Positions 38,737-64,000 of a stretch of 64,000 bases of DNA are shown here, piece after piece; the stretch's first letter is position 1, and each line of letters opens with the position of its first letter. Where the stretch lies: assembly GCF_046052825.1 (NCBI RefSeq), contig NZ_JAVLFP010000060.1, positions 87,355 to 151,354 of the forward strand, given 5' to 3'. The position numbers and the translations under genes are program-made. The notes below the pieces were generated by a model. That model was given only the letters and a program-made list of their open reading frames with translations, did no database searches and was not told the DNA's origin. This stretch comes from Limnohabitans sp. Its GTDB lineage: Bacteria > Pseudomonadota > Gammaproteobacteria > Burkholderiales > Burkholderiaceae_C.

Positions 38737-39528
38737 GTGTACGCATTCAACTTCGAACGTCCCAGCGCTTTGGCGCAAGCCGTGAGCCATCTGCAAGCCG
38801 GCGGTCAAGCCTTGGCTGGCGGCCAAACGCTGCTGGCCTCTATGAAACAGCGCCTGCTCGCGCCTGAACTGCTGGTGGACTTGGGCGCATTGCCCGAGCT
38901 CCAAGGCGTGTGCCAAGACGGCGACCACTTGGTCATCGGTGCCATGACGCGCCACCAAGACGTGGCCAGCAACGCCTTGGTGCGTCAGCACTTGCCTGCC
39001 TTAGCGGCACTGGCCAACGGCATTGGCGACAAACAAATTCGCGCCATGGGCACCTTGGGTGGCTCGGTCGCCAACAACGACCCTGCCGCCTGTTACCCCA
39101 GCGCGGTGCTGGCCTTGGGTGCCACCGTGGTCACGAACCAGCGCAGCATTGCCGCGGAAGACTTTTTTCAAGGCCTCTACAGCACGGCCTTGGAGCCGGG
39201 CGAGTTAGTTGTTGCCATCCGCTTCCCCCTGGCGCAGCGCGCGGCCTATGCCAAGTTCAAGCAGGCCGCCTCGCGCTTTGCCTTGGTGGGCGTGTTTGTG
39301 GCGCAAACCCAAGCCGGTGTGCGCGTGGCCATCACGGGCGCAGGCAACGGCGTGTTCCGCCATGCGGGCTTAGAAGCGGCGTTGACCCAAAGCTTCACGC
39401 CCGAGGCGGTGGCGCATGTGGCCATCGACGCGTCAGACCTGAACGGTGACTTGCACGCCAGCGCCGACTACCGTGCCCACTTGATCACGGTGCAAACCCA
39501 ACGTGCGGTGCGCCTGGCCCTGGCATGA
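38737..39528 (+). CDS. FAD-binding medium subunit (CoxM-like)
   Basis: 263 aa with a FAD-binding PCMH-type pattern (LAGGQTL, GTLGGSVANNDP). GTG start. Confidence 0.85.
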   Translation: MYAFNFERPSALAQAVSHLQAGGQALAGGQTLLASMKQRLLAPELLVDLGALPELQGVCQDGDHLVIGAMTRHQDVASNALVRQHLPALAALANGIGDKQIRAMGTLGGSVANNDPAACYPSAVLALGATVVTNQRSIAAEDFFQGLYSTALEPGELVVAIRFPLAQRAAYAKFKQAASRFALVGVFVAQTQAGVRVAITGAGNGVFRHAGLEAALTQSFTPEAVAHVAIDASDLNGDLHASADYRAHLITVQTQRAVRLALA

Positions 39529-40430: not shown

Positions 40431-40447
40431 TTTCACCCACCACCCAC

Positions 40448-41605
40448 ATGTTGGCGCTTGAGAACCTGGCCGCGTTTGCACGGGCTTTGCAGCGCGCGGC
40501 TGTGCCCATCGACTGCACCCGCGTGGCCTTGGCCGCCCAAGCCGCGGTGCAGGTGGGCGTGGTCCGCAAAGAAGACCTGCGCTTTGCACTCGAAGTCGTG
40601 CTGGTGTCACGGCCCCAAGACCGGGCTGTGTTTGAAGCGGTGTTTGACGCTTTTTTTCGTGCACCTGGCGAGGCCTCGGCGCTCTCGCTGGCAGCGGATG
40701 TATCGCCCTCAGACGGTGACCCACCGCCAGCTTCTGCGGCGCAGCGCCGTGCGCAAGAGGCCTTGGCCACACCCGCCGTGGCGCAGCCCCTGCACGACAC
40801 GCCGGGTACGCCAGACGACGACCCCTTGGCGCTGCGCGCCAGTGCCTATGCGCGTTTGCGCCAAGCCGATTTCGCAAGCTTGAGCGCCCAAGATGCGCGC
40901 CACATGCAGCGTTTGTTGCGCGAGGTACGCCTGGACCTGCCGCAAGTGCGGGGTCGGCGTTTGGCCGCCAGCGGGCAGGGCACGCGGCTCGACTGGGCCC
41001 GCGCCATGGAATGGGCGGCACGCCACGACGGTGAGCTGGTGCGCCTGCCGCATTTGCAACGGCGCCAACAAGCCTTGCCCTTGCTCATCTTGGTGGATGT
41101 GTCGGGCTCGATGGCGGTGTATGCGCGCTGGCTGCTGGCGTTCTTGCACCAGGCCACACGCAAGGTGCCGCGTGCAGTGTTTGCCTTTGGCACCCAGTTG
41201 ACCGACTTGAGCGCCGCTTTTCGCCAGCCCGACACCGACACCATGTTGGAGACGGTCAACCGCACCGTCACCGACTATGGCTCGGGCACCCGCCTGGGCG
41301 ACGCTGTGCAAGGCTTGCTGACACAGCACGCACGCCAGCTGGTGGGGCGGCGTACCGTGGTGCTGCTCATCACCGATGGCTTGGACACCGGCGAGCCCGA
41401 GGTGCTGGAGCGAGCCATGCGCGAGCTCAAGCGGCGCACGCGGCGCGTCTTGTGGTTGAATCCTCTGCTGCGCTTTGCGGGCTACACGCCCACAGCGCGC
41501 GGCCCCGAGGTGTTGAACCGGTGTGTCGATGGCCTATTGCCCATCCACAACCTCAACAGCCTCGAAGACCTGGCGCACGCTGTGGCCCAGGTGGTGCAAC
41601 ACTGA
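40448..41605 (+). CDS. VWA-domain protein (CoxE-like)
   Basis: Start set at ATG 40448. MIDAS motif LILVDVSGSM lies in the C-terminal VWA domain. Confidence 0.8.
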   Translation: MLALENLAAFARALQRAAVPIDCTRVALAAQAAVQVGVVRKEDLRFALEVVLVSRPQDRAVFEAVFDAFFRAPGEASALSLAADVSPSDGDPPPASAAQRRAQEALATPAVAQPLHDTPGTPDDDPLALRASAYARLRQADFASLSAQDARHMQRLLREVRLDLPQVRGRRLAASGQGTRLDWARAMEWAARHDGELVRLPHLQRRQQALPLLILVDVSGSMAVYARWLLAFLHQATRKVPRAVFAFGTQLTDLSAAFRQPDTDTMLETVNRTVTDYGSGTRLGDAVQGLLTQHARQLVGRRTVVLLITDGLDTGEPEVLERAMRELKRRTRRVLWLNPLLRFAGYTPTARGPEVLNRCVDGLLPIHNLNSLEDLAHAVAQVVQH

Positions 41606-43353: not shown

Positions 43354-44325
43354 ATGCGATCACGCCTTGTTGCTGCCTGTCTGGCATTCACATCCTGGGC
43401 CTTGCCCCACGGTGCTGCCCTGGCACAAGACTTTCCCAACAAGCCCATCCGCATTGTCGTGGGGCAGGGCGCGGGTGGGGGCATGGACACCCTGGCGCGC
43501 TTGGTGGGGCAACGGCTGTCCAACAGCTTGGGCCAGCCGGTGCTGGTGGAAAACAAGGTGGGGGCGGGTGGCATCATCGCCACCGACTTTGTGGCCAAGG
43601 CTCCGCCCGATGGCTACAGCTTGCTGATGGGGCCAATTGGCAACATGGTGTTCACCCCGGTGATGACGCCCAAGCTGCGTTACTCACCCACCAAAGACTT
43701 CACCCCCGTGTCGCTGGTGGCCACCTTTCCTTTGGTGCTGGTGGTCAGTGCCAAACAAAACATCCAGACCGTGCCCGAGTTGGTGGCCTTCATGAAAGCC
43801 AATCCCGCCAAGTCCAACTACGGGGGCTCGGGCCCGGCGTTTCAGTTCGCGTCCGAGTTGTTCCGCCTCAAAACCGGCACACCGGGCGAGTTCATCCAGT
43901 ACAAGAGTATGAGCGAGACCATCACCGGCTTGATTGCCGGCGACTTGCTCATGTCGATGGTCGACACCGGACCTGCCACACCGGCCATTGCCGCTGGGCA
44001 GTTGCGTGCCTTGGCCGTGACCTCACCCACGCGCTTGGCCGCGCTGCCCCAAGTGCCCACCATGGCCGAGCTGGGGCTGCCCGAGGTGGGCTTTCGGTTT
44101 TGGACTGGCTTGTTCGCGCCTGCGGGTACGCCCGAGCCGGTGGTGAAAAAGCTCGAAGCAGAGATCAACCGCGTCTTGAAACTCCCTGAGGTGGCCAGCC
44201 AAATGGCGACCATGCAGGTCACGCCCACCGGCAGCACCTCGGCCGAACTGGGCAAGTTGGTGGTGCAAGACCTGGCCCGTTGGGGCGCGGTCGCCGAGGT
44301 GGCGAAAATCAAAGCGCCCGAATAA
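43354..44325 (+). CDS. Bug/TctC-family periplasmic binding protein
   Basis: Signal peptide, then FPNKPIRIVVGQGAGGGMDTLARLV. Confidence 0.85.
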   Translation: MRSRLVAACLAFTSWALPHGAALAQDFPNKPIRIVVGQGAGGGMDTLARLVGQRLSNSLGQPVLVENKVGAGGIIATDFVAKAPPDGYSLLMGPIGNMVFTPVMTPKLRYSPTKDFTPVSLVATFPLVLVVSAKQNIQTVPELVAFMKANPAKSNYGGSGPAFQFASELFRLKTGTPGEFIQYKSMSETITGLIAGDLLMSMVDTGPATPAIAAGQLRALAVTSPTRLAALPQVPTMAELGLPEVGFRFWTGLFAPAGTPEPVVKKLEAEINRVLKLPEVASQMATMQVTPTGSTSAELGKLVVQDLARWGAVAEVAKIKAPE

Positions 44326-44343
44326 AAAAACCGAGAACGTCAC

Positions 44344-45375
44344 ATGTCCCCTGTTTCTGCGTGCCACGGCACATGCTGCGGTGTTGATGTGCATGCGCAC
44401 GTCATCCCCGCCGAATTTCCCCGCTACTTGGGCGATGTGGTGCCCAAGGGCTGGCCCTCGATGGCGCTGGGCGAGAACTGCCACCGCCACGTCATGATCG
44501 ACGGCAAGAACTACCGCACCGTGTCTGACAAATGCTGGACCACCTCCAAGCGCTTGGCCGACTTCACCGAGATGGGCCTGGCCCAGCAAGCTGTGTCTCC
44601 CATGCCCGAGTTGCTGTCGTACTGGCTGGAGCCTGTGGCCGCGCAGCAGCTGATTCGCTACTTGAACGACCACATCGCCCTCATGGTGGCCGAGTCGTCG
44701 GGGCAACTGCTGGGCTTGGGCGCGGTGCCTTTGCAGCACATGGACATGGCGCTGCAAGAGTTGCAGTACATCAAACACTCGCTGGGGCTGTCGGGCGTGG
44801 AGATTGGCAGCAACATCAACGGTGTGGTGGTGGGGGACCCCAAGCTAGAGCCGTTCTTTGAAGCCTGTGAGGCGTTGGACTTGGCGGTGTTTGTGCATGC
44901 GGTGCGCCCCACCGGCATGGACCGTTTGGTGGGCCCTGCGCCGCTGCAACAAATCTTGGCCTACCCGTCTGACGTGGGCTTGGCCGCCGCCTCGGTGCTG
45001 ACCAGCCAGCTCATGCTGCGCCGACCCAAACTGCGCATCGCGTTCAGCCATGGCGGGGGCACCTTGCCCATGCTGTTGCCGCGCTTGGAGCAGTCGATGT
45101 CGGTGTTCCCGGCTGTGCGTGAGGCGGTGGGCGTGTCGCCCAGCCAGCAGGTCAAGTCCTTGTACTTTGACACCTTGGTGTTTGACACGCCCACGCTGCG
45201 ACACTTGGTGCATACCTACGGCGCGAGCCAATTGATGATTGGCACCGACTATCCGTTCAATTTCCATGATCGCACCCCCGTGCAACGCATTCAGGATGCG
45301 GGCTTCGATGACGCGGTGGTGCAACAACTGGTGGCTGGCAACGCCCAGCGTTTTCTGTCTTTGACTTCTCACTGA
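44344..45375 (+). CDS. ACMSD-like amidohydrolase-2 family decarboxylase
   Basis: 343 aa, colinear with 2-amino-3-carboxymuconate-semialdehyde decarboxylase as I recall it (VDVHAHVIP, CW...R, YW, LGAVPLQ, FVH, FSHGGG, YFDTLVFD, GTDYPF, AGNAQRFL). Confidence 0.8.
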   Translation: MSPVSACHGTCCGVDVHAHVIPAEFPRYLGDVVPKGWPSMALGENCHRHVMIDGKNYRTVSDKCWTTSKRLADFTEMGLAQQAVSPMPELLSYWLEPVAAQQLIRYLNDHIALMVAESSGQLLGLGAVPLQHMDMALQELQYIKHSLGLSGVEIGSNINGVVVGDPKLEPFFEACEALDLAVFVHAVRPTGMDRLVGPAPLQQILAYPSDVGLAAASVLTSQLMLRRPKLRIAFSHGGGTLPMLLPRLEQSMSVFPAVREAVGVSPSQQVKSLYFDTLVFDTPTLRHLVHTYGASQLMIGTDYPFNFHDRTPVQRIQDAGFDDAVVQQLVAGNAQRFLSLTSH

Positions 45376-45387
45376 AAGCGGCTTTCT

Positions 45388-46293
45388 ATGTCCCATGCTT
45401 CTTCTCGCATCAGCGCCTTGCGCAGCGCGGCCCTGAATGTGCCCGACCTGCAGCTGGCCGAAGATTTTTTCACCCGCACTTGGCACCTGACGGTGGCAGA
45501 CCGTGCCCCTGGCGTGGTGTACTTGCGCGGCACAGGTCAAGACCACCACCTGCTGGCGCTGCACCAAGGCGGTGAACACGCACAGATCAAGCACATCAGC
45601 TTGCGTGCCCACAGCGAGAGCGCGCTGCACGAAGCCGCCACATTGGTGGTGCAGCATGGGGGCCGAGTGGTCAAACCCGTGTCACCTAGCGCAGAACCTG
45701 CAGGCGGCACCTCACTCACCATCGCCGACCCCCACGGACGCATTTTTGAATTGGTCTTCGGAGACGCTTTGCGCACCACGCTGACCGAAGCAGCCGACCA
45801 TCCCATCCGTCTGGCCCACGTGGTGCTCAACACCCATGATGTGCCAGCCAGCCAAGAATTTTTAGCCCAGGTGCTGGACTTTTCCTTGTCAGACCGCACC
45901 AAGATCATGGCCTTCATGCGTTGCAACAGCGACCACCACAGCATTGCCTTGGGCGACACCGACAACGACGCCTTGAACCACATCGCCTTCTTGATGCCCG
46001 ATTTGGAGTCTGTCATGCGCGGCGGTGGCCGCATGCGCGACGCGGGCTATGGCATCGAGTGGGGTCCAGGCCGCCATGGCCCTGGCAACAACGCCTTCAA
46101 TTACTTTGTGGGCCCCTTCGATCTGGTGATCGAGTACACCGCCGATGTGCAGCAAATCGACGACAGCTACAAAGTGGGTCAACCTTCGGATTGGAAATGG
46201 CCCGAAGGCCGTGTGGACCATTGGGGCATCTCTCAGCCCCCCAGCGCCAAGCTCAAAGAAGCCCAGCGTGCCGTGTTGTTTGAAAACGTTTGA
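45388..46293 (+). CDS. two-domain VOC-superfamily extradiol ring-cleavage dioxygenase-like protein
   Basis: 301 aa made of two tandem VOC modules. The C-terminal module carries His/Glu-type ligand context (LAHVVLNT..., NHIAFLM..., VIEYTA). Confidence 0.7.
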   Translation: MSHASSRISALRSAALNVPDLQLAEDFFTRTWHLTVADRAPGVVYLRGTGQDHHLLALHQGGEHAQIKHISLRAHSESALHEAATLVVQHGGRVVKPVSPSAEPAGGTSLTIADPHGRIFELVFGDALRTTLTEAADHPIRLAHVVLNTHDVPASQEFLAQVLDFSLSDRTKIMAFMRCNSDHHSIALGDTDNDALNHIAFLMPDLESVMRGGGRMRDAGYGIEWGPGRHGPGNNAFNYFVGPFDLVIEYTADVQQIDDSYKVGQPSDWKWPEGRVDHWGISQPPSAKLKEAQRAVLFENV

Positions 46294-46295
46294 AG

Positions 46296-47834
46296 ATGAG
46301 TGTTGACATGTTTGATGTGGCGATTGTGGGTTTGGGCCCAACGGGTGCGGTGGCAGCGGGTTTGTTAGGGGGGCGTGGCGTCAAGGTGTGGGTGGGCGAC
46401 CGTTTGCACGATGTGTACGACAAGCCTCGCGCCATTGCCTTGGACCACGAAATCATGCGGGTCTTCCAAGAGCTGAATTTGGTGGACGCCATCGCGTCCT
46501 TCACCGAGCCCTTCACCAACTCTGAGTTCTTTGGGGTTGACGGCCAGTTGATCAAGTGCATGTCCACCGTGGCCGAGCCTTATCCGCTGGCCTACACGCC
46601 CTCGTTGGTGTTCAGCCAGCCGCCGGTCGAAGCGGCCATGCGCGCCCATCTGAGCAGCCTGCCCAACGTCACGGTCTCGCTGGGTCAAACGGTCACCGCC
46701 GTCACGCAAGACAGCGCAGCGGCCACGCTGACGGTGGTGGACGCGCAAGGCCACAGCAGCCAAGTGCAAGCGCGTTACGTCATTGGCTGCGACGGTGCGT
46801 CGAGCTTTGTGCGCAGCCAAGTGGGCGTGACGCTGCAAGACCTGGGCTTTGACGAGCCCTGGCTGGTGGTGGACGTGTTGGTCAACGAACAGGGTTTGAA
46901 AAAGCTGCCCAAAACCAGTGTGCAGTACTGCGAGCCTGAACGTCCTTGCACGCTGGTGATTGGGCCGAAGAACCACCGCCGCTGGGAGATTTCGATCAAC
47001 CCCGGCGAAGACCCGCAACACTTGGCCACGCCTGAAGGCACCTGGCCTTTGCTGGCGCGTTGGCTCACGCCGGACGACGCCACGCTGTGGCGCCAAGCGA
47101 GTTACCGCTTCCATGCTTTGGTGGCCCAAGACTGGCGCCAAGGCCGCGTGTTCTTGGCCGGAGACGCTGCGCACCAACAGCCGCCGTTTTTGGGCCAAGG
47201 CATGTGCCAAGGCATACGCGATGCAGCCAACTTGAGCTGGAAGCTGGCCGAGGTCTTGGCCGGGCGTGCCCAAGACAGCTTGCTCGACACCTACGGACAA
47301 GAGCGCAAAGCCCACGTGACCGAGTTGACCCGACGCATCAAAGGCATTGGCCAGTTGGTGGGCCAGCGTGATGTGGCCAAAGCCCGTGAGCGCGATGCCC
47401 ATTTGTTGGCCGAGTGCGGGGGCGTGGTTCAACCCATGCCACGGCAAAACGTGCAACCCGCACTGGCCGATGGCTGCTTGGTACCCGGCACTGCGGCTGT
47501 TGGTACGCTGTTTCCCCAGGCCTGGTGGCAGCAAGGCGCGCACAAGCTGCGCATGGACTCGGTGCTGGGCACGGGCTGGCGCGTGTTCTTGGCTGCCAGT
47601 GCCGATGCGGGCTGTGAGGCCGCCTTGGCCGCCGTGCCTGCATCGCTCCAACTCAAGGTCATTCGCTTGGGCACCCCTGAGGCACCCGAGTGCGATGGTG
47701 TGCTCGCCCACTGGTTCACCACCCAGGGCTGTCAGGCCGCTTGGGTGCGCCCCGACCACTATGTGTTTGCCACCGCCAACACTGCCTCAGAACTCACCCC
47801 ACAGCTGCACACCCTGCGCACTTTCTTTTCATAA
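46296..47834 (+). CDS. FAD-dependent aromatic monooxygenase (MhpA / 3-hydroxyphenylpropionate hydroxylase-like)
   Basis: GxGxxG DVAIVGLGPTG, DG motif IGCDGASS and FAD fingerprint GDAAHQQPPFLGQGMCQGIRDAANLSWKL. Candidate starts are TTG 46290, ATG 46296 and ATG 46308. Confidence 0.85.
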   Translation: MSVDMFDVAIVGLGPTGAVAAGLLGGRGVKVWVGDRLHDVYDKPRAIALDHEIMRVFQELNLVDAIASFTEPFTNSEFFGVDGQLIKCMSTVAEPYPLAYTPSLVFSQPPVEAAMRAHLSSLPNVTVSLGQTVTAVTQDSAAATLTVVDAQGHSSQVQARYVIGCDGASSFVRSQVGVTLQDLGFDEPWLVVDVLVNEQGLKKLPKTSVQYCEPERPCTLVIGPKNHRRWEISINPGEDPQHLATPEGTWPLLARWLTPDDATLWRQASYRFHALVAQDWRQGRVFLAGDAAHQQPPFLGQGMCQGIRDAANLSWKLAEVLAGRAQDSLLDTYGQERKAHVTELTRRIKGIGQLVGQRDVAKARERDAHLLAECGGVVQPMPRQNVQPALADGCLVPGTAAVGTLFPQAWWQQGAHKLRMDSVLGTGWRVFLAASADAGCEAALAAVPASLQLKVIRLGTPEAPECDGVLAHWFTTQGCQAAWVRPDHYVFATANTASELTPQLHTLRTFFS

Positions 47835-47852
47835 AAAAACCGGAGACTTCCC

Positions 47853-48833
47853 ATGACACGTCGTCACTTTTTACACACCGCACTGGCCACCGCTGCTGGT
47901 TTGAGCGCCTTGCCTGTGTGGGCGCAAAGCGCTGCATGGCCCGACAAACCCATCAAGGTGGTGCTGTCGCAGCCGCCTGGCTCGGGCCCCGACAACGTGG
48001 CCCGTTTGTTGGGCGAGCGCGTCGGCAAGACCTTGGGCCAGCCGTGGGTGATCGACAACAAACCTGGGGGCCAAAACATCATCGGTGCGCAAGCCGCTGC
48101 GCGTTCGCCCGCCGACGGCTACACCTTGTACTTCGCCACCACGGCCGCCTTGGTCACGAACAAGCACCTGTTCAAAACCATGCCCTACGACCCGCAAAAA
48201 GACTTTGTGCCGGTGGCCTTCGTGGCCAAGAGCCCGTTTGCGGTGTTGGTGAAAGCCGAGTCACCCATCGCCTCGATCCAAGACCTGATCGCACGTGCCA
48301 AGGCCACACCCGGCAAGCTGTCGCTGGCCAACGAAGGCCCTCGCACCTTTGGCGGGATCATCGCGCGCTTGATCAATTCACGGACCAAGATGGAGGCCAA
48401 TTTGGTCTCTTACGCCTCGGTGGGGGTGGCGGTGCAAGACGTGTTGGGTGGACATGCCGAAGCCGTGGTGGCCGACTTGGCCTCAACCGCCGCTTTGGTG
48501 CGCCAAGGCCGCCTGCGTTTGTTGGCCGTCACAGCGGGCAAACGCGTGGCAGGTTGGGAGCAGGTGCCTGCGTTGTCAGAGTTGCTGCCCAACTTTGAAA
48601 TGGTGGGTTGGTTCGCCTTGATGGCGCCCACGGGCACCCCTGCTGCAGCGATTCAAAAACTCAACGTCGAAGTCAACAAGTTGCTGGCCGAGCCCGAGTT
48701 TGCGCAACGCATGCTCACCATGGGGCCGATTGCAGACCCCTTGGGCGGGCCCGAGAAGACCGAAGCCTTCTTGAACCGCGAGCACGAGCGCTGGGCCGAA
48801 GTGGCCAAAGAAATTGGCCTCTTGCCGGAGTAA
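47853..48833 (+). CDS. Bug/TctC-family periplasmic binding protein (Tat-type signal)
   Basis: N-terminus MTRRHFLHTALATAAGLSALPVWA matches the (S/T)RRxFL pattern, followed by WPDKPIKVVLSQPPGSGPDNVARLL. Confidence 0.85.
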   Translation: MTRRHFLHTALATAAGLSALPVWAQSAAWPDKPIKVVLSQPPGSGPDNVARLLGERVGKTLGQPWVIDNKPGGQNIIGAQAAARSPADGYTLYFATTAALVTNKHLFKTMPYDPQKDFVPVAFVAKSPFAVLVKAESPIASIQDLIARAKATPGKLSLANEGPRTFGGIIARLINSRTKMEANLVSYASVGVAVQDVLGGHAEAVVADLASTAALVRQGRLRLLAVTAGKRVAGWEQVPALSELLPNFEMVGWFALMAPTGTPAAAIQKLNVEVNKLLAEPEFAQRMLTMGPIADPLGGPEKTEAFLNREHERWAEVAKEIGLLPE

Positions 48834-56083: not shown

Positions 56084-57784
56084 ATGACCCACATCGCATC
56101 GACAGACGTCATCATCGTGGGTGGCGGCCCCAGTGGTCTGATGTTGGCCATTGAGCTGGGATGCCGCAACGTGCCCTGCCTCTTGATCGAGCCGCAACTG
56201 CTGCCCCCCGACCGCCCCAAAGCCAACGCCACCTCCGCACGCACCATGGAGCATTACCGCCGCCGTGGTTTTGCCGACCAGGTGCGCAAGGTCGGCATGG
56301 CCGCAGACTATCCCCAAGACGTGATGTATTGCACCCGATTGGCGGGCAAAGAACTGGCGCGTTTTCGCATCCCCAGCCGCACCCAGGCGGCTCAGCAAAG
56401 CGCCTTTGGCGACTACGGCGAAGCCGCTTGGCCCACCCCAGAGTTGCCGCACCGGGGCCAGCAGATGTACATCGAGCCGATCTTGCGTCAACAGATCGCG
56501 CGCTACCCCAGTGTGACCACGCGTTACGGTTGGCAAGTCGATCAAGTCGCCGATGGCGCCGAGCACGCGCGTGTAGTCGCCACCGATGTGGCCACCCAAC
56601 GCACGCATGAGCTGCAAGCGCGGTACGTGGTGGGGTGCGATGGACCCCGCAGCATCGTGCGCCACACCATGGGCACCAGCTACGAAGGGGCCAGCCAAGA
56701 GCAGCGGGATTATTTTGGCGGGCAGATGCTGTCGATCCACTTTCGCGCGGCAGGTTTGTACCCCGCCTTGGCGCACGGCCCGTTGGCCCAGCCGGCTTGG
56801 CAGAGCTGGGTCATGAACCCCCAACTGCGCGGCATCTTGGTGGCCATCAACGGCGTGGATGAGTTTGGCATGGGCATTCAACTCAAACCCGGTCAAGGCA
56901 TTGACGATGTCAATGTCGATGCCACCCTGCGCACGCTCACCGGCCTGGACACCGTGCCGTTTGACTACGAGGTGCTGCACAAAAGCAGTTGGACAGCGGG
57001 CTTCATGTTGGTGGCCGAGCAGTTCCAAACCGGGCGCTTGTTCATTGCCGGAGACGCCGCCCATTTGTTCACCCCCACCGGTGGCATGGGCTACAACACC
57101 AGCATCGACGACGCCGTGAACTTGGGTTGGAAGCTCGCCGCCGTGGTGCAGGGCTGGGCCCCTGAGTCGCTGCTGCACACCTACTTTGAAGAGCGCCACC
57201 CCATCGCCAAGCGCAACACACAGTTTGCGCGTCTCATGGCCGAAAGCATTGGGCGCATGCCCATCCCGGCATCGCTGGAGCAAGACACCACGGAGGGTGA
57301 ACAAGCCCGAGTCGCCTTGGCCCATGCCGTGCACGCCCACGCCCATGCGGAGTTCAACATCCCAGGCTTGCAGCTGGGGCTGCGCTACCAAAGCCGCATC
57401 GTGGCGCGTGAATCGGGCGAGGCCCCGCCCGATGCCCCCAATGTCTATGTGCCCAGTGGGTTTGCGGGATGCCGCGCACCGTTTGTCAAGCTGGCAGACG
57501 GCAGGTGGCTGCCCGACTTGTTTGGCAGGGACTTCACCGTGTTGGCCTTGGGCCCGCAGTCCGACGAACACACCTGGTTGGAGGCCGCCAGTGCCCTCAC
57601 ATTGCCCTTGACGGTGGTGCATCAACCCGACGCCGCAGCGCGTGCGCTGTACGGGGCCGATTGGGTGCTGGTTCGCCCCGACCATCATGTGGCTTGGCGG
57701 GGCAACAGCGCACAGCAGGCTTCAGCCGTGCTGGCGCAAGCCGCAGGTCTCAGGGTGGATGAAGGGATGCAGATCAGCCGGTGA
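56084..57784 (+). CDS. FAD-dependent aromatic hydroxylase (PheA/TfdB phenol monooxygenase-like, with C-terminal thioredoxin-like domain)
   Basis: Start set at ATG 56084. Carries VIIVGGGPSG, VGCDGPRS and GDAAHLFTPTGGMGYNTSIDDAVNLGWKL, with a ~170-aa C-terminal extension. Confidence 0.85.
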   Translation: MTHIASTDVIIVGGGPSGLMLAIELGCRNVPCLLIEPQLLPPDRPKANATSARTMEHYRRRGFADQVRKVGMAADYPQDVMYCTRLAGKELARFRIPSRTQAAQQSAFGDYGEAAWPTPELPHRGQQMYIEPILRQQIARYPSVTTRYGWQVDQVADGAEHARVVATDVATQRTHELQARYVVGCDGPRSIVRHTMGTSYEGASQEQRDYFGGQMLSIHFRAAGLYPALAHGPLAQPAWQSWVMNPQLRGILVAINGVDEFGMGIQLKPGQGIDDVNVDATLRTLTGLDTVPFDYEVLHKSSWTAGFMLVAEQFQTGRLFIAGDAAHLFTPTGGMGYNTSIDDAVNLGWKLAAVVQGWAPESLLHTYFEERHPIAKRNTQFARLMAESIGRMPIPASLEQDTTEGEQARVALAHAVHAHAHAEFNIPGLQLGLRYQSRIVARESGEAPPDAPNVYVPSGFAGCRAPFVKLADGRWLPDLFGRDFTVLALGPQSDEHTWLEAASALTLPLTVVHQPDAAARALYGADWVLVRPDHHVAWRGNSAQQASAVLAQAAGLRVDEGMQISR

Positions 57785-58238
57785 AGCGTTGCAGCTGAGC
57801 CAGCATGGCGGCTGGAATGGGCACCCGCTGGCGCACCTCTCGGCTGATGCAAATGGGTGAAAAGCGCCCCGTGAAAATGCGTCGTCCATCGGCTTGCTTG
57901 GCCTCGACGTGGATGTCGTAGCTGTGCGCACGGATGTTGGAGACCGTGCAGTGCATGTCAAACTCATCCTCGGGCCACAGCGCACCATGGAACGTCAAGT
58001 CCATGCCTTTGCAAGGCGTGTCGACGGCCAGCGTTTTGATCCATTCAAAGTAGCGGCCATCGCCCAACTCGGCAAAAAAATAGCTCGAAGCGATCAGCAA
58101 ATACTCGGTGAACTTACCGGTGTACACCACGCCTGCCGGGTCGCAGTCGGCCCAGCGCACGCGCTTGCGCACCACCAAGGGGTGGCGCGACACCACACGT
58201 TCGTAGGTTGACACATGGGGGGCGCTGTCAGCGTGCAT
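57774..58238 (-). CDS. 4-hydroxybenzoyl-CoA-thioesterase-type (hotdog fold) acyl/aryl-CoA thioesterase
   Basis: 154 aa with N-terminal VRWADCDPAGVVYTGKF, the 4HBT-type catalytic Asp context. Confidence 0.75.
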   Translation of the reverse strand: MHADSAPHVSTYERVVSRHPLVVRKRVRWADCDPAGVVYTGKFTEYLLIASSYFFAELGDGRYFEWIKTLAVDTPCKGMDLTFHGALWPEDEFDMHCTVSNIRAHSYDIHVEAKQADGRRIFTGRFSPICISREVRQRVPIPAAMLAQLQRFTG

Positions 58239-59445
58239 GGGCGCTTTCCAGGGGTTCGTGGGCAGCCACAGGCTTTTGTGTCAAACCCTCGCGCTGAAAT
58301 TGCGCAAACAACTCGGGGTATTGCTGCTGCAAGCGTTCTTCGCTCAGGCGACCGGTGCGGGTCATGAACGCGTGAATGAACCCATAGGGGGTGTAGCGTC
58401 GCATCCAGTCCCCAAACTGCTCGTACCACAGGTAGGACTTGCGTGAGGCGTTCAAGAGTTTGTCTTTGGCCGGGCCGCGCGTTTGGGCAAAGTTGTGCAG
58501 GCGTGCCAGTGGGCTGAGCTCTGGGGCTCCGGTTGCCACCGGCGCGGTCAAGGCATCGGCCAGCGCAATCGCGTCTTCCATGGCGATGCGGGTGCCTGAA
58601 CCAATCGAGAAGTGGGCCGTGGTGTGCGCGTCGCCCATCAACACATGCTTGCCCACCGTCCAGTGCGCGTTTTGCGTCACGGGGAACTGCCGCCAGTTGG
58701 AATGGTTGGAAATCAGTGGCTCCCCATCCAGCTCAGGCGCAAACACCTGTTCAAACACCTGTTGGCGTTGTTCGTTGCTCATGGCGTGCAGCCCTAAGCT
58801 GTGCCAGGTGGCGTCGTCGCACTCCGCCACAAAGGTGCTGGCCGAGCTGCTGTAGGGGTAGTAATGCGCCACAAACGAGCCGCCTTGCCACTCACGAAAC
58901 ACCAAGGCCGATTTGGTGAACACCCGCGCCGTGCCGTACCACGCAAAGTGGTTGGTCAGGAATGACTGGGTGGTGCCAAACTCTGTTTCGTAGGCGGCAC
59001 GCACCACCGAGTTCACGCCATCGGCGCCCACCACCACATCGGCATCGGCCAAACCATGCTGACTGAGTTCGTCGGGGTGTTCGATGCGCACACCAAAACG
59101 CACATCCACACCCACCTCTTGGGCGGTGCGTTGCAGCACATGCAGCAAATCGATGCGGGCAATGGCACCCCCTTTGGCGGGGTGTTGAATGTCAATCGGA
59201 TGGTGTTGCACTTCGATGGTTTGAACCCCATTGAAATTCATCTTCGCAACCAACTGCTCAAACACCTGGGGGTCTGCTGCTTGCAAACGGTTGAGCCCTG
59301 AGTCGGCCAGCACCACCCCAAACCCAAAGGTCGAATCGGCGTTGTTTTGTTCAATCACGCTCACAGGCCAGTCGGGTTGGCGGCGTTTGAGCAAGAGGGC
59401 GAGGTACAGCCCCGAGGGGCCACCGCCCACGATGGCGACTTTCAT
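58228..59445 (-). CDS. stand-alone group-A FAD-dependent monooxygenase (candidate aryl-CoA hydroxylase)
   Basis: 405 aa with MKVAIVGGGPSG and GDAHTTAHFSIGSGTRIAMEDAIALADAL. The N-terminal pattern ...TFGFGVVL... resembles what I recall of the monooxygenase half of aminobenzoyl-CoA/salicylyl-CoA hydroxylases. That resemblance is unverified. Confidence 0.75.
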   Translation of the reverse strand: MKVAIVGGGPSGLYLALLLKRRQPDWPVSVIEQNNADSTFGFGVVLADSGLNRLQAADPQVFEQLVAKMNFNGVQTIEVQHHPIDIQHPAKGGAIARIDLLHVLQRTAQEVGVDVRFGVRIEHPDELSQHGLADADVVVGADGVNSVVRAAYETEFGTTQSFLTNHFAWYGTARVFTKSALVFREWQGGSFVAHYYPYSSSASTFVAECDDATWHSLGLHAMSNEQRQQVFEQVFAPELDGEPLISNHSNWRQFPVTQNAHWTVGKHVLMGDAHTTAHFSIGSGTRIAMEDAIALADALTAPVATGAPELSPLARLHNFAQTRGPAKDKLLNASRKSYLWYEQFGDWMRRYTPYGFIHAFMTRTGRLSEERLQQQYPELFAQFQREGLTQKPVAAHEPLESAHAR

Positions 59446-59699
59446 GCGGCGCTTTCGATGATGGTCAACACATCGTTGTCAAAGTGGGTGATCTGTCCGA
59501 CCAAGCCACCCGTCAACGCCCCGTGCCACACCGCAGGCTTGAAGCCCAAGGTTTTACGCTTCAAGCTGATTTGCTGCGGCGCGGAGATGCGCCAATACCC
59601 CAGCCGTGGGCCATCGACCTGGTAGTCGGGCACCTCACGCGCATGCGCCACCAAGGGTAAAAACTCTTCCACATTGAGGACAAAGATCGTGGGCATCAA
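59442..59699 (-). CDS. 85-aa protein, possible MmoB/DmpM-family (monooxygenase effector) fold
   Basis: Translationally coupled to both neighbours by 4-nt overlaps. The motif YWRISAPQQISLKRKTL...GQITHFDNDVLTI parallels DmpM MIRIEAEKRLEIRRETV...GNVDEDDDRFVL and T4moD [17 protein letters not shown]...GQIQADEDQIRF, both recalled from memory. Confidence 0.45.
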   Translation of the reverse strand: MMPTIFVLNVEEFLPLVAHAREVPDYQVDGPRLGYWRISAPQQISLKRKTLGFKPAVWHGALTGGLVGQITHFDNDVLTIIESAA

Positions 59700-60316
59700 T
59701 GGGACTCCTGGGCCTGCTCAAACGCCTGGGCCAAGGCCGCGCCTTTGGTCAGCCAGACTTGGTCGATCTTTTGAAACGGTTGCTGGCCTTGCTCCAGGGC
59801 CATGCCTGCTTCGAGGGTGCGGGCGGCGTCTTGAATGTCAATGGCTTCGAACGGACGGACTTGCCAGGTGATCTCCAGCGAGTAGCCATTGGGGTCGTTG
59901 AAGTAAATCGACTCAATCACCTCGTGGCGAATTTGGTACTTGACCTCAATGCCAGCGGCTTCGATCTTGGCGCGGCAGTCCAACAAGGCTTCGCGGGTGT
60001 CCACGCGCCATGCCGTGTGCGAGGCGCGGTAGCGGTAGTCGTCGTGCACCGCCACAAAGTCGGGTGGGGTGGTGCCGATGTAGTAAAAAAACGCGATCGT
60101 GCTGTGGTTGCCGCTGTCAAAAAAGAAATGCAAAAAGTCGGCATGGTCTTCCGGACCCCAGCCACGCGCTGAAATGGCATGCACCAGCGGCAGCCCCAAC
60201 AAGTCACGGTAAAAGTGCACGGTTTCTGACAACTTCCAGGTCGGGCGTGCCGTGTGGTGAACGCCCGCAATGGGAATGGGCTGACGGGCTGTGGTGGCTG
60301 AGGTGAGGGTGGTCAT
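59696..60316 (-). CDS. VOC-superfamily (glyoxalase/dioxygenase fold) protein with C-terminal helical extension
   Basis: 206 aa with a VOC module GVHHTARPTW...FYRDLLGLP...HFFFD...HTAWRV...SIYFNDPNGYSLEI, followed by about 55 extra residues. Confidence 0.7.
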   Translation of the reverse strand: MTTLTSATTARQPIPIAGVHHTARPTWKLSETVHFYRDLLGLPLVHAISARGWGPEDHADFLHFFFDSGNHSTIAFFYYIGTTPPDFVAVHDDYRYRASHTAWRVDTREALLDCRAKIEAAGIEVKYQIRHEVIESIYFNDPNGYSLEITWQVRPFEAIDIQDAARTLEAGMALEQGQQPFQKIDQVWLTKGAALAQAFEQAQESH

Positions 60317-60331
60317 AAGAGGTCTCTGGTG

Positions 60332-62017
60332 TCACTGCGGGGTTTGTTCGGCTTTGAGCATGTTGGCAATCAAGGTTCGCAGGGCGGGCTTGTTGAGTTT
60401 GGACGCGTTGGTGAGGGGGAACTCTGTCAGCACCTCGATGCGTTCAGGCCACTTGAATTTGGCCATGCCCGCCGCTTCCAAAAAGCGCCCCAGCTCTGCG
60501 GTGGTGGGCACAACCGCACCATCACGCAGGGTGACGAAGGCACAGATGCGCTCGCCGTACACCTGGTCGGGCATGCCCACGATGGCCGTGGCCGAGATGG
60601 CAGGGTGGCGGTTGACTTGCAACTCCACTTCTTCGCAGTTGACCTTTTCGCCCGCGCGGTCCACCACGTCTTTGGTGCGGCCACGGAACTGGTAGTAGCG
60701 CTTGCCGCCAATGTCTCGAAACAGCATCAAGTCGCCCGAGCGGTAAAAGCCCTGGCGGGTGAAGGCCTGTGCATCGCGCTCCGGGGCATCGTAATAACCG
60801 TGGATGGTGTAGGGCCCACCAAAGGCGCATTCGCCTTCGACACCGGGTTCCACAATTTCCTCCTCGCTGCCAATCTTGAACAGCTTGACTTGGTCAAATG
60901 GCGACACCGGCGCGCCCACCATGGTGTCGCGCACCTCTTGCGGGTCGGTGTCTTGCGTGAGCATGATCACGCCCTCGGTCATGCCAAAGATGTGATAAAC
61001 CGGCGCACCCAACAAGTCGCGCAAGGCCGGGGCGTTGTTGGCGCTGATGACCCCGCGCAGACTGCCCAGAGGCAATGCGCCCGATTGAACGGCGGGTTTG
61101 AGCTTCTCCACCAAAGGCCCGGCCATCACGGTCCAGGTGGGTTCGCAGCGTTTGAAAATATCGCCCAAAGCCTCGGGCGCCAAACTGGTGGCAATGGCCA
61201 CGTTGCCCCCGGTCAACAAAAACGGACCAAAGCAGCACCCCATGTTGAGGTTGTGCATCATCGGCATGGGCATGAACAACACGTCGTCGCTGCGGTAGCC
61301 GTTCCAAGCCGCGACCGAGCGCATGTTGTAGATGTACTCGTTGTGAAAACGCGGAATGATCTTGGGCACCCCGGTGGTGCCGCCAGACAGCTGAAACACC
61401 GCCACCTGAAACGGGTCGCGCGGCACTTGGGCCAGCAGCGCGCTGGCGCTTTCTTGGCTGATCGACGCGATCAGGGTTTGCAGATGGTGGGCGGACCCGC
61501 GCGGCGTGCCACGGGCCTGGACGATGGCCGTCAAGGTGGGCACCACGGCCTGCATGCGCTCGGCAAATGCCACATCGTCGAACTTTGGGTCATCGCCTTG
61601 CACAAACATCAGCCGTGCTTTGGCATGGTTGCCCAAGTAGCCAATTTCAAGTTCGCGGTGGGCGGCGAGGGTGCAGATGGGAATCAAACCTGCCTTGAGG
61701 CAGGCGATGAAGCCCACCACCAGCTCGTTGCAGTTGCCGATCTGAAAAATCACCCGGTCCAAGGGCGCCAACCCCATCTGGATGAACGCACCCGCCAAGC
61801 GGTCGGTCATCTCTTGCAACTGGCCGTAACTCAAACTGCCCTCGCTGCCGCTCAGTGCAGTGCGTTTGGCATGTTGGGTGAATGACGCACTGAAGGCCTG
61901 GTCCATGGTTTCGTGGGTCAGGGCGCCACCGTCGACATAGCGGCGCAAGTCGGCTTCTGGGGCATAGACCACCCCCGGCATGGGGTGGCGTACTTGGTAT
62001 TGGCGTGAGGTCAGCAT
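60332..62017 (-). CDS. aryl-acid adenylating enzyme / aryl-CoA ligase (EntE/DhbE-like ANL family)
   Basis: 561 aa with AMP-binding motifs LSGGTTGVPK, GMTEG, YRSGD and GRTKD. The N-terminal region is colinear with 2,3-dihydroxybenzoate-AMP ligases as I recall them. Confidence 0.85.
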   Translation of the reverse strand: MLTSRQYQVRHPMPGVVYAPEADLRRYVDGGALTHETMDQAFSASFTQHAKRTALSGSEGSLSYGQLQEMTDRLAGAFIQMGLAPLDRVIFQIGNCNELVVGFIACLKAGLIPICTLAAHRELEIGYLGNHAKARLMFVQGDDPKFDDVAFAERMQAVVPTLTAIVQARGTPRGSAHHLQTLIASISQESASALLAQVPRDPFQVAVFQLSGGTTGVPKIIPRFHNEYIYNMRSVAAWNGYRSDDVLFMPMPMMHNLNMGCCFGPFLLTGGNVAIATSLAPEALGDIFKRCEPTWTVMAGPLVEKLKPAVQSGALPLGSLRGVISANNAPALRDLLGAPVYHIFGMTEGVIMLTQDTDPQEVRDTMVGAPVSPFDQVKLFKIGSEEEIVEPGVEGECAFGGPYTIHGYYDAPERDAQAFTRQGFYRSGDLMLFRDIGGKRYYQFRGRTKDVVDRAGEKVNCEEVELQVNRHPAISATAIVGMPDQVYGERICAFVTLRDGAVVPTTAELGRFLEAAGMAKFKWPERIEVLTEFPLTNASKLNKPALRTLIANMLKAEQTPQ

Positions 62018-62052
62018 GGGGTGTGGTGTGTGTGGCGGCGGTGCGCAGGGGC

Positions 62053-63030
62053 TTATTCAGGCTTGAACCCTAAGGTGCGGATGACACCGCCAAACAATTC
62101 TTTTTCGCTTTTGACAAAGCGCTGGGCATCGGCCACCGAGCCTGGCGTGGCGTAGGTGCCGAAGTCACGGAACTTGGCCAACACATCGGGCTGCTGCATG
62201 GCCAGGTTGATGTCGTTGTTGAGGCGCTGCAAGATCGCCGCAGACGTGCCCTTGGGGGCCTGAAAACTGAACCAGCCGCTGATGTTCAAACCTGGAATGG
62301 TTTTGTTGGCCAAGGGAATGCTCTCCAAGCCAGGCAATTCGGTTTCGGCCGCCACCGCGAGGGCACGCAAGCGCCCTGACTTGACCAATTGAATCAGCGG
62401 GCCCGTGCCGTCCACATACATGGCGATGTCGCCGTTGACAACCGACTGAATGCCTTGCGCGGTGTTGGCAAAAGACACTTGTTGAAACTGCACATTCATT
62501 TTGATGCCCGCCACCTCGGCGGCCAAATGCGGGATGGAGGTTCGGGTGGGGTTGCCAATCGCAATTTGGTCAGGCTTGGCTTTGGCCATGGCAATGGCAT
62601 CGGCCAAGTTTTTGGCGGGGTTGCTTGCGTTGGTGACAAACAGCATGGGTGTTTTGCCGGCGATGGCAAAGGTCTCGAAGTCGCGTTCTATGTCGTAGGT
62701 GGCTTCTTTGTAGGTGACCGGCGTGACCACCACCACAGCGGCTTGGTTCAAGCCAATGGTGTAACCGTCGGCAGGCGCTGCTTTGAGCAAGTTCATGGCC
62801 ACAATGCCGCCTGCGCCGGGCTTGTTGTCGACCACGATGGTTTGACCCAGGCTCGCGGTGAGCTTGTCGCCAATGATGCGGGCCGCCAAGTCAGGCGCGC
62901 TGCCCGCAGGTGCGGGCACGATCAAGCGGATCGACTTTTGCGGCCAAGCGCCGGTTTGTGCCCAACTGCAAAGCGCTGCAGCACCAAGGCACGTGGCCAG
63001 CAAGGTGCGAGAGAGATGTTTCAAAAGCAT
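62053..63030 (-). CDS. Bug/TctC-family periplasmic binding protein
   Basis: Signal peptide MLLKHLSRTLLATCLGAAALCSWA, then WPQKSIRLIVPAPAGSAPDLAARII. Confidence 0.85.
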   Translation of the reverse strand: MLLKHLSRTLLATCLGAAALCSWAQTGAWPQKSIRLIVPAPAGSAPDLAARIIGDKLTASLGQTIVVDNKPGAGGIVAMNLLKAAPADGYTIGLNQAAVVVVTPVTYKEATYDIERDFETFAIAGKTPMLFVTNASNPAKNLADAIAMAKAKPDQIAIGNPTRTSIPHLAAEVAGIKMNVQFQQVSFANTAQGIQSVVNGDIAMYVDGTGPLIQLVKSGRLRALAVAAETELPGLESIPLANKTIPGLNISGWFSFQAPKGTSAAILQRLNNDINLAMQQPDVLAKFRDFGTYATPGSVADAQRFVKSEKELFGGVIRTLGFKPE

Positions 63031-63069
63031 GGGGTGTCTCCAGGGTGGTGGTGGTGATCTGAAAAAAAA

Positions 63070-64000
63070 TCAACGTGGCTCGTGCAGCCATTGCTGAACC
63101 AAACGGCCGGCCAAGACTTGTCCGGTCTCTTCGCCTTCGGCCAAGGCCTGTCCGTGGTGGTTGCCGCGCACGCGTTCGCGCCGCTTGTGGGAGGTGCCGA
63201 TGGACGCGTAAATGGCCGCCATGTCCGACGGAAATGCGGCTTGGTCCCCGGTGTACTCAATCACCAGCGAGGGCACTTGAATCTCCGGGCCGCATTTCTC
63301 GAAACTCGCGTTCGAGCTGATGCCCGACCAGGTGGACAACCACGACTCGGCGGTGACCATGCGGGCAAAACCCACGCTGCCCCAGTTGGAGGCAAAGGGG
63401 TCACGGCCCCACAGGCCACCCACCACGCGGTCAGAGGGGTCGAGCGACAAGTCCCAGCAGCGCAAGTCGGCATCGGTGCGCCAAATGGCGGTGATGGGCG
63501 TGTGCGCGGCCCGTCGCTGGGTGTGCACCGAGGTGTCACCTTCTTTCATTTGTTTGCGCGCCTGCGCGCGCGTGGCCAAGATGGCGCGCGCATGGGCGTC
63601 TAAGCGCTCGATGCGGGCGTGCTGCGCGGCACGGTAGCGGCTCACAAACTCAGGGCTGTAGTGGGACGAGGCGGGCGGCGTGACAAACCCGTTGTGGGCG
63701 TCGAACGGGTCAAGCGCTGCATCCACCGACAAGGGGTCGTGCTCGTCGCTGACCGACGGGTCGATGCCGTTCATCAGCAACTTGCCTTGACCGGGGTGGG
63801 GCGAGACAAAAATCAAGTCATCCGGCGCTGGCATGTGGGCACCCGCCAGATCGACCGGGCGCCCGCCGGGCGTGCGTGCAATGCGTTGCTCGGGCGCACG
63901 CAAGGCCTGCTGGGTGTAGAAGGCATACAAGCCCGCACCGCCCGAGTTGCCCAACAACACGATGCGCTCAAACCCCAGGCTGCGCAAATGCGCCATGCTG
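63070..64000 (-). CDS. alpha/beta hydrolase (partial; N-terminus beyond window end)
   Basis: Nucleophile elbow LLGNSGGAG lies only ~15 aa from the first in-window residue, so the true start must be upstream of position 64000. Confidence 0.6.
   Translation of the reverse strand, partial: SMAHLRSLGFERIVLLGNSGGAGLYAFYTQQALRAPEQRIARTPGGRPVDLAGAHMPAPDDLIFVSPHPGQGKLLMNGIDPSVSDEHDPLSVDAALDPFDAHNGFVTPPASSHYSPEFVSRYRAAQHARIERLDAHARAILATRAQARKQMKEGDTSVHTQRRAAHTPITAIWRTDADLRCWDLSLDPSDRVVGGLWGRDPFASNWGSVGFARMVTAESWLSTWSGISSNASFEKCGPEIQVPSLVIEYTGDQAAFPSDMAAIYASIGTSHKRRERVRGNHHGQALAEGEETGQVLAGRLVQQWLHEPR

Follow-up and report, generated by a model that had tools for sequence, protein, structure and literature searches.

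Gene content and layout of the locus

The 64,000-nucleotide stretch of Limnohabitans sp. DNA analyzed here, referred to as the window, ends in a row of minus-strand genes that we interpret as a candidate operon for the breakdown of an aromatic acid. A first-pass annotation of the window had described six open reading frames (ORFs) in this row, encoding a Bug binding protein, an EntE/DhbE-like aryl-acid ligase, a vicinal oxygen chelate (VOC) protein, a small effector-like protein, a flavin monooxygenase, and a 4HBT-type thioesterase. All six are present, and the family calls for all but the small protein hold in Pfam and NCBIfam searches, but the row comprises seven genes rather than six.

The additional gene is the first of the operon (63070..64000, minus strand, like all those that follow) and encodes a protein with an alpha/beta hydrolase fold. 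It runs past the end of the window, which truncates it and leaves residues 108 to 416 of a 416-residue product. Its translation is stop-free through 63999 and 96% identical to the full-length 416-residue protein of a closely related locus, L004. Next come genes for a periplasmic TctC/Bug solute-binding protein of 325 residues (62053..63030; PF03401 TctC, 9e-46), an aryl-acid adenylating enzyme or aryl-coenzyme A (CoA) ligase of the EntE/DhbE/PchD family (561 residues, 60332..62017; AMP-binding, 1e-50, plus AMP-binding_C), and a single-domain VOC metalloenzyme of 206 residues with a C-terminal extension of about 50 residues (59696..60316; PF00903, 3e-13). They are followed by genes for the small protein, which has a predicted MmoB/DmpM-type fold (59442..59699), a stand-alone group-A flavin adenine dinucleotide (FAD) monooxygenase of 405 residues (58228..59445; FAD_binding_3, 6e-16), and a hotdog-fold acyl-CoA thioesterase of the 4HBT_2 or YbgC-like type (154 residues, 57774..58238; PF13279, 7.7e-15).

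The small gene and the monooxygenase gene share an ATGA overlap (59442-59445), and the monooxygenase and thioesterase genes overlap by 11 nucleotides (58228-58238), both as first reported. The 4-nucleotide overlap claimed between the VOC and small genes (59696-59699) holds only with a TTG start at 59699, which gives a small protein of 85 residues. The junction reads cat-TGATG-ccc, and with the ATG at 59696 the overlap shrinks to 1 nucleotide (TGATG) and the product to 84 residues, a length common to many homologues. A scan of positions 57000-64000 for promoter- or terminator-like sites returned nothing above the level of shuffled sequence and no such site inside the gene row.

The absence of an adjacent regulator, also part of the first-pass annotation, turned out to be an artefact of the window edge, since in relatives a TetR-family gene lies upstream of the hydrolase gene that is cut here. 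Such a gene, divergent from the row, occupies this position beyond the edge in L004 and L005, two near-identical contigs whose proteins are 88 to 97% identical to those of the window, and likewise in Variovorax sp. Root411 and on a plasmid of Burkholderia sp. THE68. Just past the TetR gene, these closest relatives carry a further single-domain VOC protein of 197 residues (L004, 3918-4511, plus strand; PF00903, 2.6e-10). At the opposite end of the row, a plus-strand gene for a 566-residue FAD aromatic-ring hydroxylase (56084-57784; FAD_binding_3 and Rng_hyd_C; NCBIfam subfamily PRK06126, 593 bits, above the cut-off) converges on the thioesterase gene. The 3′ ends of the two genes share 11 nucleotides (57774-57784), thus leaving no space for a terminator. 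This adjacency is kept only in L004 and L005, while a 62% identical homologue lies a few kilobases off in L038.

Conservation of the gene row across genomes

To determine how widely the row is kept, an alignment of the small protein was scanned against one genome per species, which yielded 76 loci. The presence of each gene was then counted by tblastn with the window proteins in the 64 loci from other genomes that had full flanks. The VOC and small genes were found in 64/64, the hydrolase in 63, the ligase and the monooxygenase in 61 each, and the thioesterase, placed after the monooxygenase, in 52; all six of these core genes occurred together in 52 of the 64 loci. A TetR gene was present in 48 loci and an orthologue of the Bug protein (at least 45% identity) in 28. 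Many loci carry a major facilitator superfamily (MFS) transporter and a porin in place of the Bug protein, which is thus a lineage-specific uptake component. Clustering of the neighbouring ORFs revealed, in addition, a maleate isomerase homologue of about 250 residues in 47/64 loci, directly after the thioesterase gene in 44. The conserved order is therefore alpha/beta hydrolase, binding protein in some lineages, ligase, VOC protein, MmoB-like protein, flavin monooxygenase, thioesterase, and usually maleate isomerase, an arrangement far beyond chance. Whether the VOC and small genes travel with those for ligase, monooxygenase, and thioesterase had been left to comparative genomics by the first-pass annotation, and the co-occurrence counts across genomes show that they do.

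Carriers among the Burkholderiales include Variovorax, Polaromonas, Hydrogenophaga, Ottowia, Bordetella, Achromobacter, Cupriavidus, Paraburkholderia, Caballeronia, Burkholderia, Pandoraea, Methylibium, and Verticiella; Cupriavidus metallidurans CH34, Variovorax sp. Root411, and Burkholderia sp. THE68 are culturable examples. Alphaproteobacterial carriers comprise Acetobacteraceae, Sphingomonas sp. SRS2, Methylocella, and Pontivivens, and one Woeseiaceae genome is also among the 76 loci. In two loci, L070 (Rhizobiales bacterium 62-17) and L072 (Methylocella sp.), the VOC-small pair and the hydrolase persist without the ligase, monooxygenase, and thioesterase genes, which suggests that ring cleavage and hydrolysis form a separable module; these genomes seem to have put it to use in a different pathway. 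The neighbours there (about 5500-12800), called by eye, are an isochorismatase-like hydrolase, a LigB-type dioxygenase, a MarR regulator, and a Bug protein. The VOC copies of both loci fail the extradiol signature described below.

The VOC protein and its small partner

An alignment of 77 VOC sequences revealed invariant His21, His100, and Glu148 at the canonical metal positions, and we assign them the role of metal ligands by this position. His46, His58, His63, His131, and Tyr138 are invariant as well. Residues 129 to 148 read I-R-H-x5-I-Y-x2-D-P-x-G-x3-E and thus conform to the extradiol signature, which we take to be [GNTIV]-x-H-x(5,7)-[LIVMF]-Y-x(2)-[DENTA]-P-x-[GP]-x(2,3)-E. The pattern is matched by 74 of the 77 homologues and, among 1238 control ORFs, almost only by VOC proteins. 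The closest solved relative is PDB 9u42 (1e-14), deposited only as ‘Glyoxalase’, for which a literature search returned no paper. The protein falls well below curated dioxygenase models, with 27 bits (1.7e-6) against TIGR03211 (cut-off 320) and 25 bits against TIGR03213 (cut-off 366). The metal triad and the signature point to a putative Fe(II) extradiol-type ring-cleaving dioxygenase.

The small protein was more difficult to place. We found 156 homologues, the best 120 of which are 81 to 93 residues long, and a motif, RKxLGFKPAVWHGALTGG, is almost invariant among them. Its suggested likeness to effector proteins was upheld at the level of the predicted fold and not at that of the sequence family. 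An AlphaFold2 model built from an alignment of 33 sequences (mean predicted local distance difference test score [pLDDT] of 91, predicted template modelling score of 0.80) was compared with the PDB by Foldseek, and the top 32 matches were all T4moD, MMOB, or the phenol hydroxylase regulatory protein DmpM, with E values down to 6.6e-5. TM-scores ranged from 0.63 to 0.77 against crystal and cryo-electron microscopy structures and from 0.44 to 0.61 against two nuclear magnetic resonance models. The Foldseek probability was 1.00 for all 32 effector matches except the last (0.66), with nothing credible below them. The model thus predicts an MmoB/DmpM effector fold. By sequence, in contrast, the protein is not a member of the effector family PF02406. 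The window's copy had no Pfam or NCBIfam match and gave nothing usable in PDB sequence searches, and 7 of 33 relatives matched PF02406 weakly (best E value, 0.017), none reaching the gathering score, although this was still the most frequent Pfam family among the members. An hhalign comparison with 10 annotated MmoB/DmpM/TmoD proteins was weak too (probability 19%, P value 0.0012), yet its 42 aligned columns lay in the structurally expected register.

Searching 1.84 billion representative proteins with the family profile gave 130 listed matches. Six stand-alone matches of 96 to 112 residues were scanned against Pfam; PF02406 was absent from all of them, with no sign of genuine effectors. In addition, no diiron hydroxylase or reductase was detected among the gene families shared by at least 3 of the 76 loci, nor in the cluster on the THE68 plasmid as annotated by the Prokaryotic Genome Annotation Pipeline (PGAP). 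Two further weak resemblances were noted along the way. PF23509 (‘MSMEG_3727, PQQ-associated’) was matched by 3 of 33 relatives (best E value, 0.006) and may be another small-protein family related to the MmoB-like fold. A 1668-residue protein with YDG and DUF5649 repeats (P0481) matched the profile weakly six times (E value, 1.9e-4), probably by chance or through its composition.

Two-domain extradiol enzymes are typically about 290 residues long, and the 206 residues of the VOC protein plus the 84 of the small protein come close to this length. The small protein might therefore be unrelated to MmoB/DmpM and represent the degenerate, split-off second domain of such an enzyme. The first half of the model, with its beta-alpha-beta-beta-beta topology, resembles a VOC module, and some sources call relatives of the small protein ‘glyoxalase’; the weak hhalign and sub-threshold Pfam results would fit this origin as well. 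VOC structures are plentiful in the PDB, however, as the matches of the VOC protein itself show, and none was among the 50 best matches listed for the small protein, while all of the top 32 were effectors of bacterial multicomponent monooxygenases (BMMs). Fused or adjacent genes are the probable source of the ‘glyoxalase’ names, and PF02406, albeit weak, leads the Pfam matches of the family. We consider the degenerate-domain origin very unlikely.

The closest tie of the small protein is to the VOC protein. The two frames form one continuous ORF of about 275 to 291 residues in 23 of 79 loci, found in Paraburkholderia, Caballeronia, Burkholderia, Cupriavidus, Verticiella, Methylibium, Pseudoduganella, and Woeseiaceae, and PGAP annotates a single 289-residue ‘VOC family protein’, the fusion WP_162071146.1, at this position on the THE68 plasmid. 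The representative library likewise contains proteins of 260 to 298 residues with the small-protein profile at their C terminus, one of which (P0403) has a Glyoxalase domain in front. Where the genes are not fused, stop and start nearly always overlap (TGATG), and the two genes are adjacent in 64/64 loci. Even in the rearranged loci L042, L060, and L063 to L077, in which the monooxygenase gene lies elsewhere or is missing, the small gene stays behind the VOC gene. Because of these in-frame fusions and the invariant adjacency, which are classical evidence of this kind, we regard the small protein as working together with the VOC protein, either as its partner or as a subunit.

The first-pass annotation had instead tied the effector-like protein to the flavin monooxygenase. 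Under that reading the VOC protein would be an accessory (a tautomerase, an isomerase, or a detoxifying enzyme), the unit would carry out hydroxylation only, and the hydrolase would be a front-end esterase. The ATGA overlap of the small gene with the start of the monooxygenase gene, seen in the window and in many loci, agrees with that reading, as does the likeness of the hydrolase to esterases and thioesterases reported below. A role as monooxygenase effector has no support comparable to the 23 fusions with the VOC protein or to the loci in which the small gene has stayed beside the VOC gene and the monooxygenase gene has not. To our knowledge, group-A flavin monooxygenases need no effector, and the VOC protein retains its full metal triad and dioxygenase signature. 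This assignment appears quite unlikely to us.

By analogy with the diiron systems, and since it takes the place of a second domain, the MmoB-like protein may cap the metal site of the VOC protein like a lid, shaping or gating the site and the access of substrate or O2. We know of the MmoB/DmpM fold so far only from helper proteins of the diiron methane, toluene, and phenol monooxygenases. Going further, we propose, tentatively and with odds somewhat against us, that a mononuclear nonheme-iron VOC dioxygenase requires the MmoB-fold protein as its subunit or effector, that the complex is a new, non-cupin cleaver of gentisate or gentisyl-CoA, and that together with the new hydrolase family it replaces all classical enzymes of the lower gentisate pathway.

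A putative pathway and its likeness to known systems

The closest solved relatives of the ligase are the salicylate-AMP ligase 5wm2 (5e-90), PchD (5e-84), and DhbE (5e-82). It matches TIGR02275 at 1.7e-103 and 347 bits, below the equivalog cut-off of 724, and is therefore not an EntE equivalog. Its H-N-x4-C motif aligns with the salicylate-type enzymes; according to work on DhbE, the Asn reportedly touches the 2-hydroxyl, and the Cys is said to stand for the Ser of 2,3-dihydroxybenzoate (DHB) enzymes. No gene for a carrier protein or a nonribosomal peptide synthetase (NRPS) was found in the conserved cluster, either among the neighbour-ORF families or in the PGAP annotation of the THE68 plasmid, which favours CoA as the likely acyl acceptor.

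The monooxygenase was, as first described, a stand-alone enzyme of about 400 residues with no reductase. Its residues 1 to 393 align with positions 1 to 390 of the 768 positions of NF006101, the bifunctional salicylyl-CoA 5-hydroxylase/oxidoreductase (6.9e-93), which is the best of 46 NCBIfam families, followed by VioD (2.6e-55). With its 405 residues and no reductase half, the protein scores 312 bits, far under the cut-off of 1078. VioD also provides the closest solved structures (2e-43), and the DG and GD motifs are conserved. The enzyme is therefore homologous to the hydroxylase half of salicylyl-CoA 5-hydroxylase and of 2-aminobenzoyl-CoA monooxygenase/reductase, and by this homology it would hydroxylate para to the 2-substituent, giving gentisyl-CoA. 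The thioesterase matches TIGR00051 at 5e-6, below the cut-off.

The hydrolase had no sequence match in Pfam, NCBIfam, or the PDB, and PGAP names its orthologue ‘alpha/beta hydrolase’. Its family counts 5766 proteins at an E value of at most 1e-5 and is spread far more widely than that of the 84-residue protein. AlphaFold2 (pLDDT, 82) predicted an alpha/beta hydrolase fold interrupted by a long helical insertion. All 50 Foldseek matches listed had a probability of 1.00, and all but a few are alpha/beta hydrolases. Ser126, Asp359, and His388/389 are invariant, and the motifs G-x-S-G-G, Y-T-G-D, and G-x-H-H-G are kept in 52 or 53 of 53 members; the predicted enzyme is thus a Ser-Asp-His alpha/beta hydrolase. 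In the window, the nucleophile elbow reads G-N-S-G-G, the Asn being variable among relatives.

The downstream gene of about 250 residues that accompanies most of the loci matches the maleate cis-trans isomerases 4fq7 (1.3e-73) and 2xec (1.4e-56), compared with about 1e-6 for arylmalonate decarboxylases, and of the two catalytic Cys motifs one is kept by 37/37 members and the other by 36/37. We therefore expect the pathway to run to maleate, consistent with ring cleavage of the gentisate type and subsequent hydrolysis.

On these grounds, we propose that the region comprises most of a TetR-controlled catabolic operon that encodes a complete CoA-ester and ring-cleavage pathway for a salicylate-like, ortho-substituted aromatic acid, a reading to which we assign a probability of about 0.5. 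The acid would be taken up by the TctC protein, or by the MFS transporter and porin of other lineages, and converted to its aryl-CoA by the EntE/PchD-type ligase. The stand-alone, NAD(P)H-dependent flavin monooxygenase would then hydroxylate the ring to yield gentisyl-CoA, from which the hotdog thioesterase would free the dihydroxy acid, gentisate. The Fe(II) extradiol-type VOC enzyme, complexed or fused with the MmoB/DmpM-fold protein, would open the ring to maleylpyruvate; the Ser-Asp-His hydrolase would split this product into maleate and pyruvate, and the maleate isomerase would turn maleate into fumarate. A gentisate-type pathway is the simplest complete reading because each conserved gene receives one step and the isomerase is explained. 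What had been called a hydroxylation system is probably a whole ring-cleavage pathway, and the unit also includes the hydrolase, the TetR regulator, and usually the isomerase. The setting is catabolic as well, with TetR, with TctC, MFS, and porin genes as neighbours, and with no carrier protein or NRPS. A biosynthetic, siderophore-type role was rejected for the lack of these last two and for the presence of uptake genes, TetR, and maleate isomerase. More broadly, the operon is real and widely conserved yet uncharacterized, and it probably degrades a salicylate-like acid via CoA esters.

Several observations weigh against the gentisate-type pathway, whose enzyme activities and substrate are putative assignments from sequence homology. 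The gentisate 1,2-dioxygenases known to us are cupins and not VOC proteins, and the signature of the VOC protein is that of catechol extradiol enzymes. The second pocket segment of the ligase, GMTEGVIMLT, differs from those of two aligned salicylate-activating enzymes (GMAEGLLNYT and GMAEGLICYT), and the substrate may therefore be a substituted analogue rather than plain salicylate. The nearest folds of the hydrolase are esterases, monoglyceride lipases, and a thioesterase rather than C-C hydrolases; the enzyme could equally act first, freeing the acid from an ester, and the fold search neither favours nor disfavours a C-C hydrolase role. Finally, 12 of 64 loci have no thioesterase gene, and no maleate isomerase homologue lies in the window, whose own lineage is without an adjacent isomerase.

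The signature and the hydrolase also bear on a catechol route. An extradiol dioxygenase and an alpha/beta hydrolase are the classical meta-cleavage pair, and the G-N-S-G-G elbow of the window's hydrolase could be taken to strengthen the likeness. Hydroxylation ortho to the 2-hydroxyl would then give 2,3-dihydroxybenzoyl-CoA, the VOC protein would be a true catechol extradiol dioxygenase, as its signature has it, and the hydrolase would be a meta-cleavage C-C hydrolase. Such a route leaves the maleate isomerase of 47/64 loci unexplained, and no meta-pathway hydratase, aldolase, or decarboxylase is conserved among the neighbour-ORF families. The elbow Asn is not invariant, and characterized homologues of the monooxygenase hydroxylate para, at C5 (as the name of NF006101 states; PMC4600096). 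We thus hold a catechol route to be unlikely.

The loci that lack a thioesterase, on the other hand, raise the question of whether ring cleavage takes place on the CoA thioester. The complex of the VOC and MmoB-like proteins would in that case open gentisyl-CoA or another dihydroxyaryl-CoA, the hydrolase would cut the CoA-bound product, and the thioesterase would act last, on a small acyl-CoA. The VOC-small pair does lie between the genes for ligase and monooxygenase, with translational coupling to the latter, and an extra partner domain could conceivably bind the bulky CoA moiety. Nevertheless, the thioesterase gene directly follows the monooxygenase gene in most loci, no CoA-binding motif was identified in the VOC or small protein, and the Sdg, Ceh, and Phg routes discussed below hydrolyze the thioester before the ring is cleaved (PMC4600096, PMC11848710). 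Cleavage on the thioester merits consideration, but the balance of these points makes it rather unlikely, and we retain the order of the gentisate-type pathway, with release of the acid before ring opening.

Elsewhere in the window, a second block with the look of aromatic catabolism (43354-48833) lies separate from the operon. Its core comprises genes for an Amidohydro_2 protein (44344-45375), a two-domain VOC or extradiol-type protein (45388-46293), and a 514-residue FAD ring hydroxylase (46290-47834), flanked by Bug/TctC genes at 43354-44325 and 47853-48833. In all, seven Bug/TctC paralogues occur within about 31 kb (32305-63030), as is typical of Burkholderiales with expanded families of tripartite tricarboxylate transporter receptors. 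At 39525-41605 (plus strand), a gene for an AAA ATPase adjoins one for a CoxE-like VWA protein, a MoxR/CoxD-CoxE-type pair apparently unrelated to the operon.

The first-pass annotation had suggested that the cluster is undescribed, and this stood: we found no curated NCBIfam model or publication describing it. A full-text literature search returned no publication on the cluster or on an MmoB-like protein outside the diiron monooxygenases. In NCBIfam release 20, specific models are lacking for four of the products, namely the VOC and small proteins, the hydrolase, and the thioesterase, to which PGAP gives generic names. If confirmed biochemically, the partnership of a VOC protein with an MmoB fold would be the element that is new in kind and the first case of a BMM effector fold acting outside diiron enzymes. 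Decades of study have dealt with this fold solely in diiron methane, toluene, and phenol monooxygenases, where it acts as gatekeeper of O2 activation; a VOC partnership would provide a second biochemical context and a testable handle on the origins of effectors and on how they affect a metal site. The operon would also account for a so far unannotated way of degrading salicylate-type acids, among them plant signals, drug residues, and intermediates from polycyclic aromatic hydrocarbons, both in Burkholderiales of soil and water, such as Variovorax, Polaromonas, Cupriavidus, Paraburkholderia, Bordetella, and Achromobacter, and in certain Alpha- and Gammaproteobacteria. Moreover, functions would be assigned to two families without a Pfam or NCBIfam model, those of the 84-residue protein and of the 416-residue hydrolase with its more than 5000 relatives.

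Among described systems, the nearest in logic are the Sdg genes of Streptomyces sp. WA46 and the Ceh genes of Rhizobium sp. X9, which are reported to convert salicylate to gentisate in a CoA-dependent manner (PMC4600096; Zhou et al. 2021, cited in PMC11335346). Both share with the operon an EntE-type activation of the acid, a homologous flavin monooxygenase domain acting on the CoA thioester, release of the acid, and subsequent ring cleavage. The monooxygenase of the operon, however, corresponds to the FAD half of about 400 residues and lacks the old yellow enzyme-type reductase half. PhgABC of Brevibacillus laterosporus converts 4-hydroxybenzoate to gentisate via 4-hydroxybenzoyl-CoA and gentisyl-CoA (PMC11848710, PMC7862547) and, by its published description, follows the same logic of a ligase, a stand-alone aryl-CoA hydroxylase, and a gentisyl-CoA thioesterase. 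Phg activates its substrate with a 4-hydroxybenzoate-CoA ligase, whereas the ligase of the operon belongs to the salicylate/DHB-AMP ligase family, and the Phg cluster has no VOC, MmoB-like, hydrolase, or isomerase genes. The Sdg, Ceh, and Phg clusters all continue with a cupin gentisate dioxygenase, and none is conserved in the operon; compared with Sdg and Ceh, it has the VOC protein with its MmoB-like partner, the new alpha/beta hydrolase, and maleate isomerase instead.

With the MmoB/DmpM/T4moD effectors (PF02406), the small protein shares its predicted fold, a similar size, and a weak sequence echo in the same structural register. It differs from them in that its sequence similarity stays under every family threshold, in that genes for a diiron hydroxylase, reductase, or ferredoxin are lacking nearby, and in that it pairs with a mononuclear-metal VOC protein, often within a single polypeptide. 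The VOC protein itself resembles the single-domain type I extradiol and VOC hydroquinone dioxygenases, namely the one-domain BphC enzymes and LinE, PcpA, and MhqO, in its fold, in the positions of His, His, and Glu, in its signature motif, and in its small size. In contrast to these enzymes, it has an apparently obligate MmoB-fold partner or fusion and a C-terminal linker of about 50 residues, and its likely substrate is a carboxylated hydroquinone or a thioester rather than a catechol or chlorohydroquinone. The lower part of the proposed pathway, in which maleylpyruvate would be split into maleate and pyruvate and maleate converted to fumarate, finds its counterparts in HbzF of Pseudomonas alcaligenes NCIMB 9867, which is said to belong to a gentisate pathway with direct hydrolysis of maleylpyruvate, and in the maleate isomerase of nicotinate and nicotine degradation (4fq7). 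The hydrolase of the operon differs from HbzF in belonging to an unmodelled alpha/beta family and not to a known type of maleylpyruvate hydrolase.

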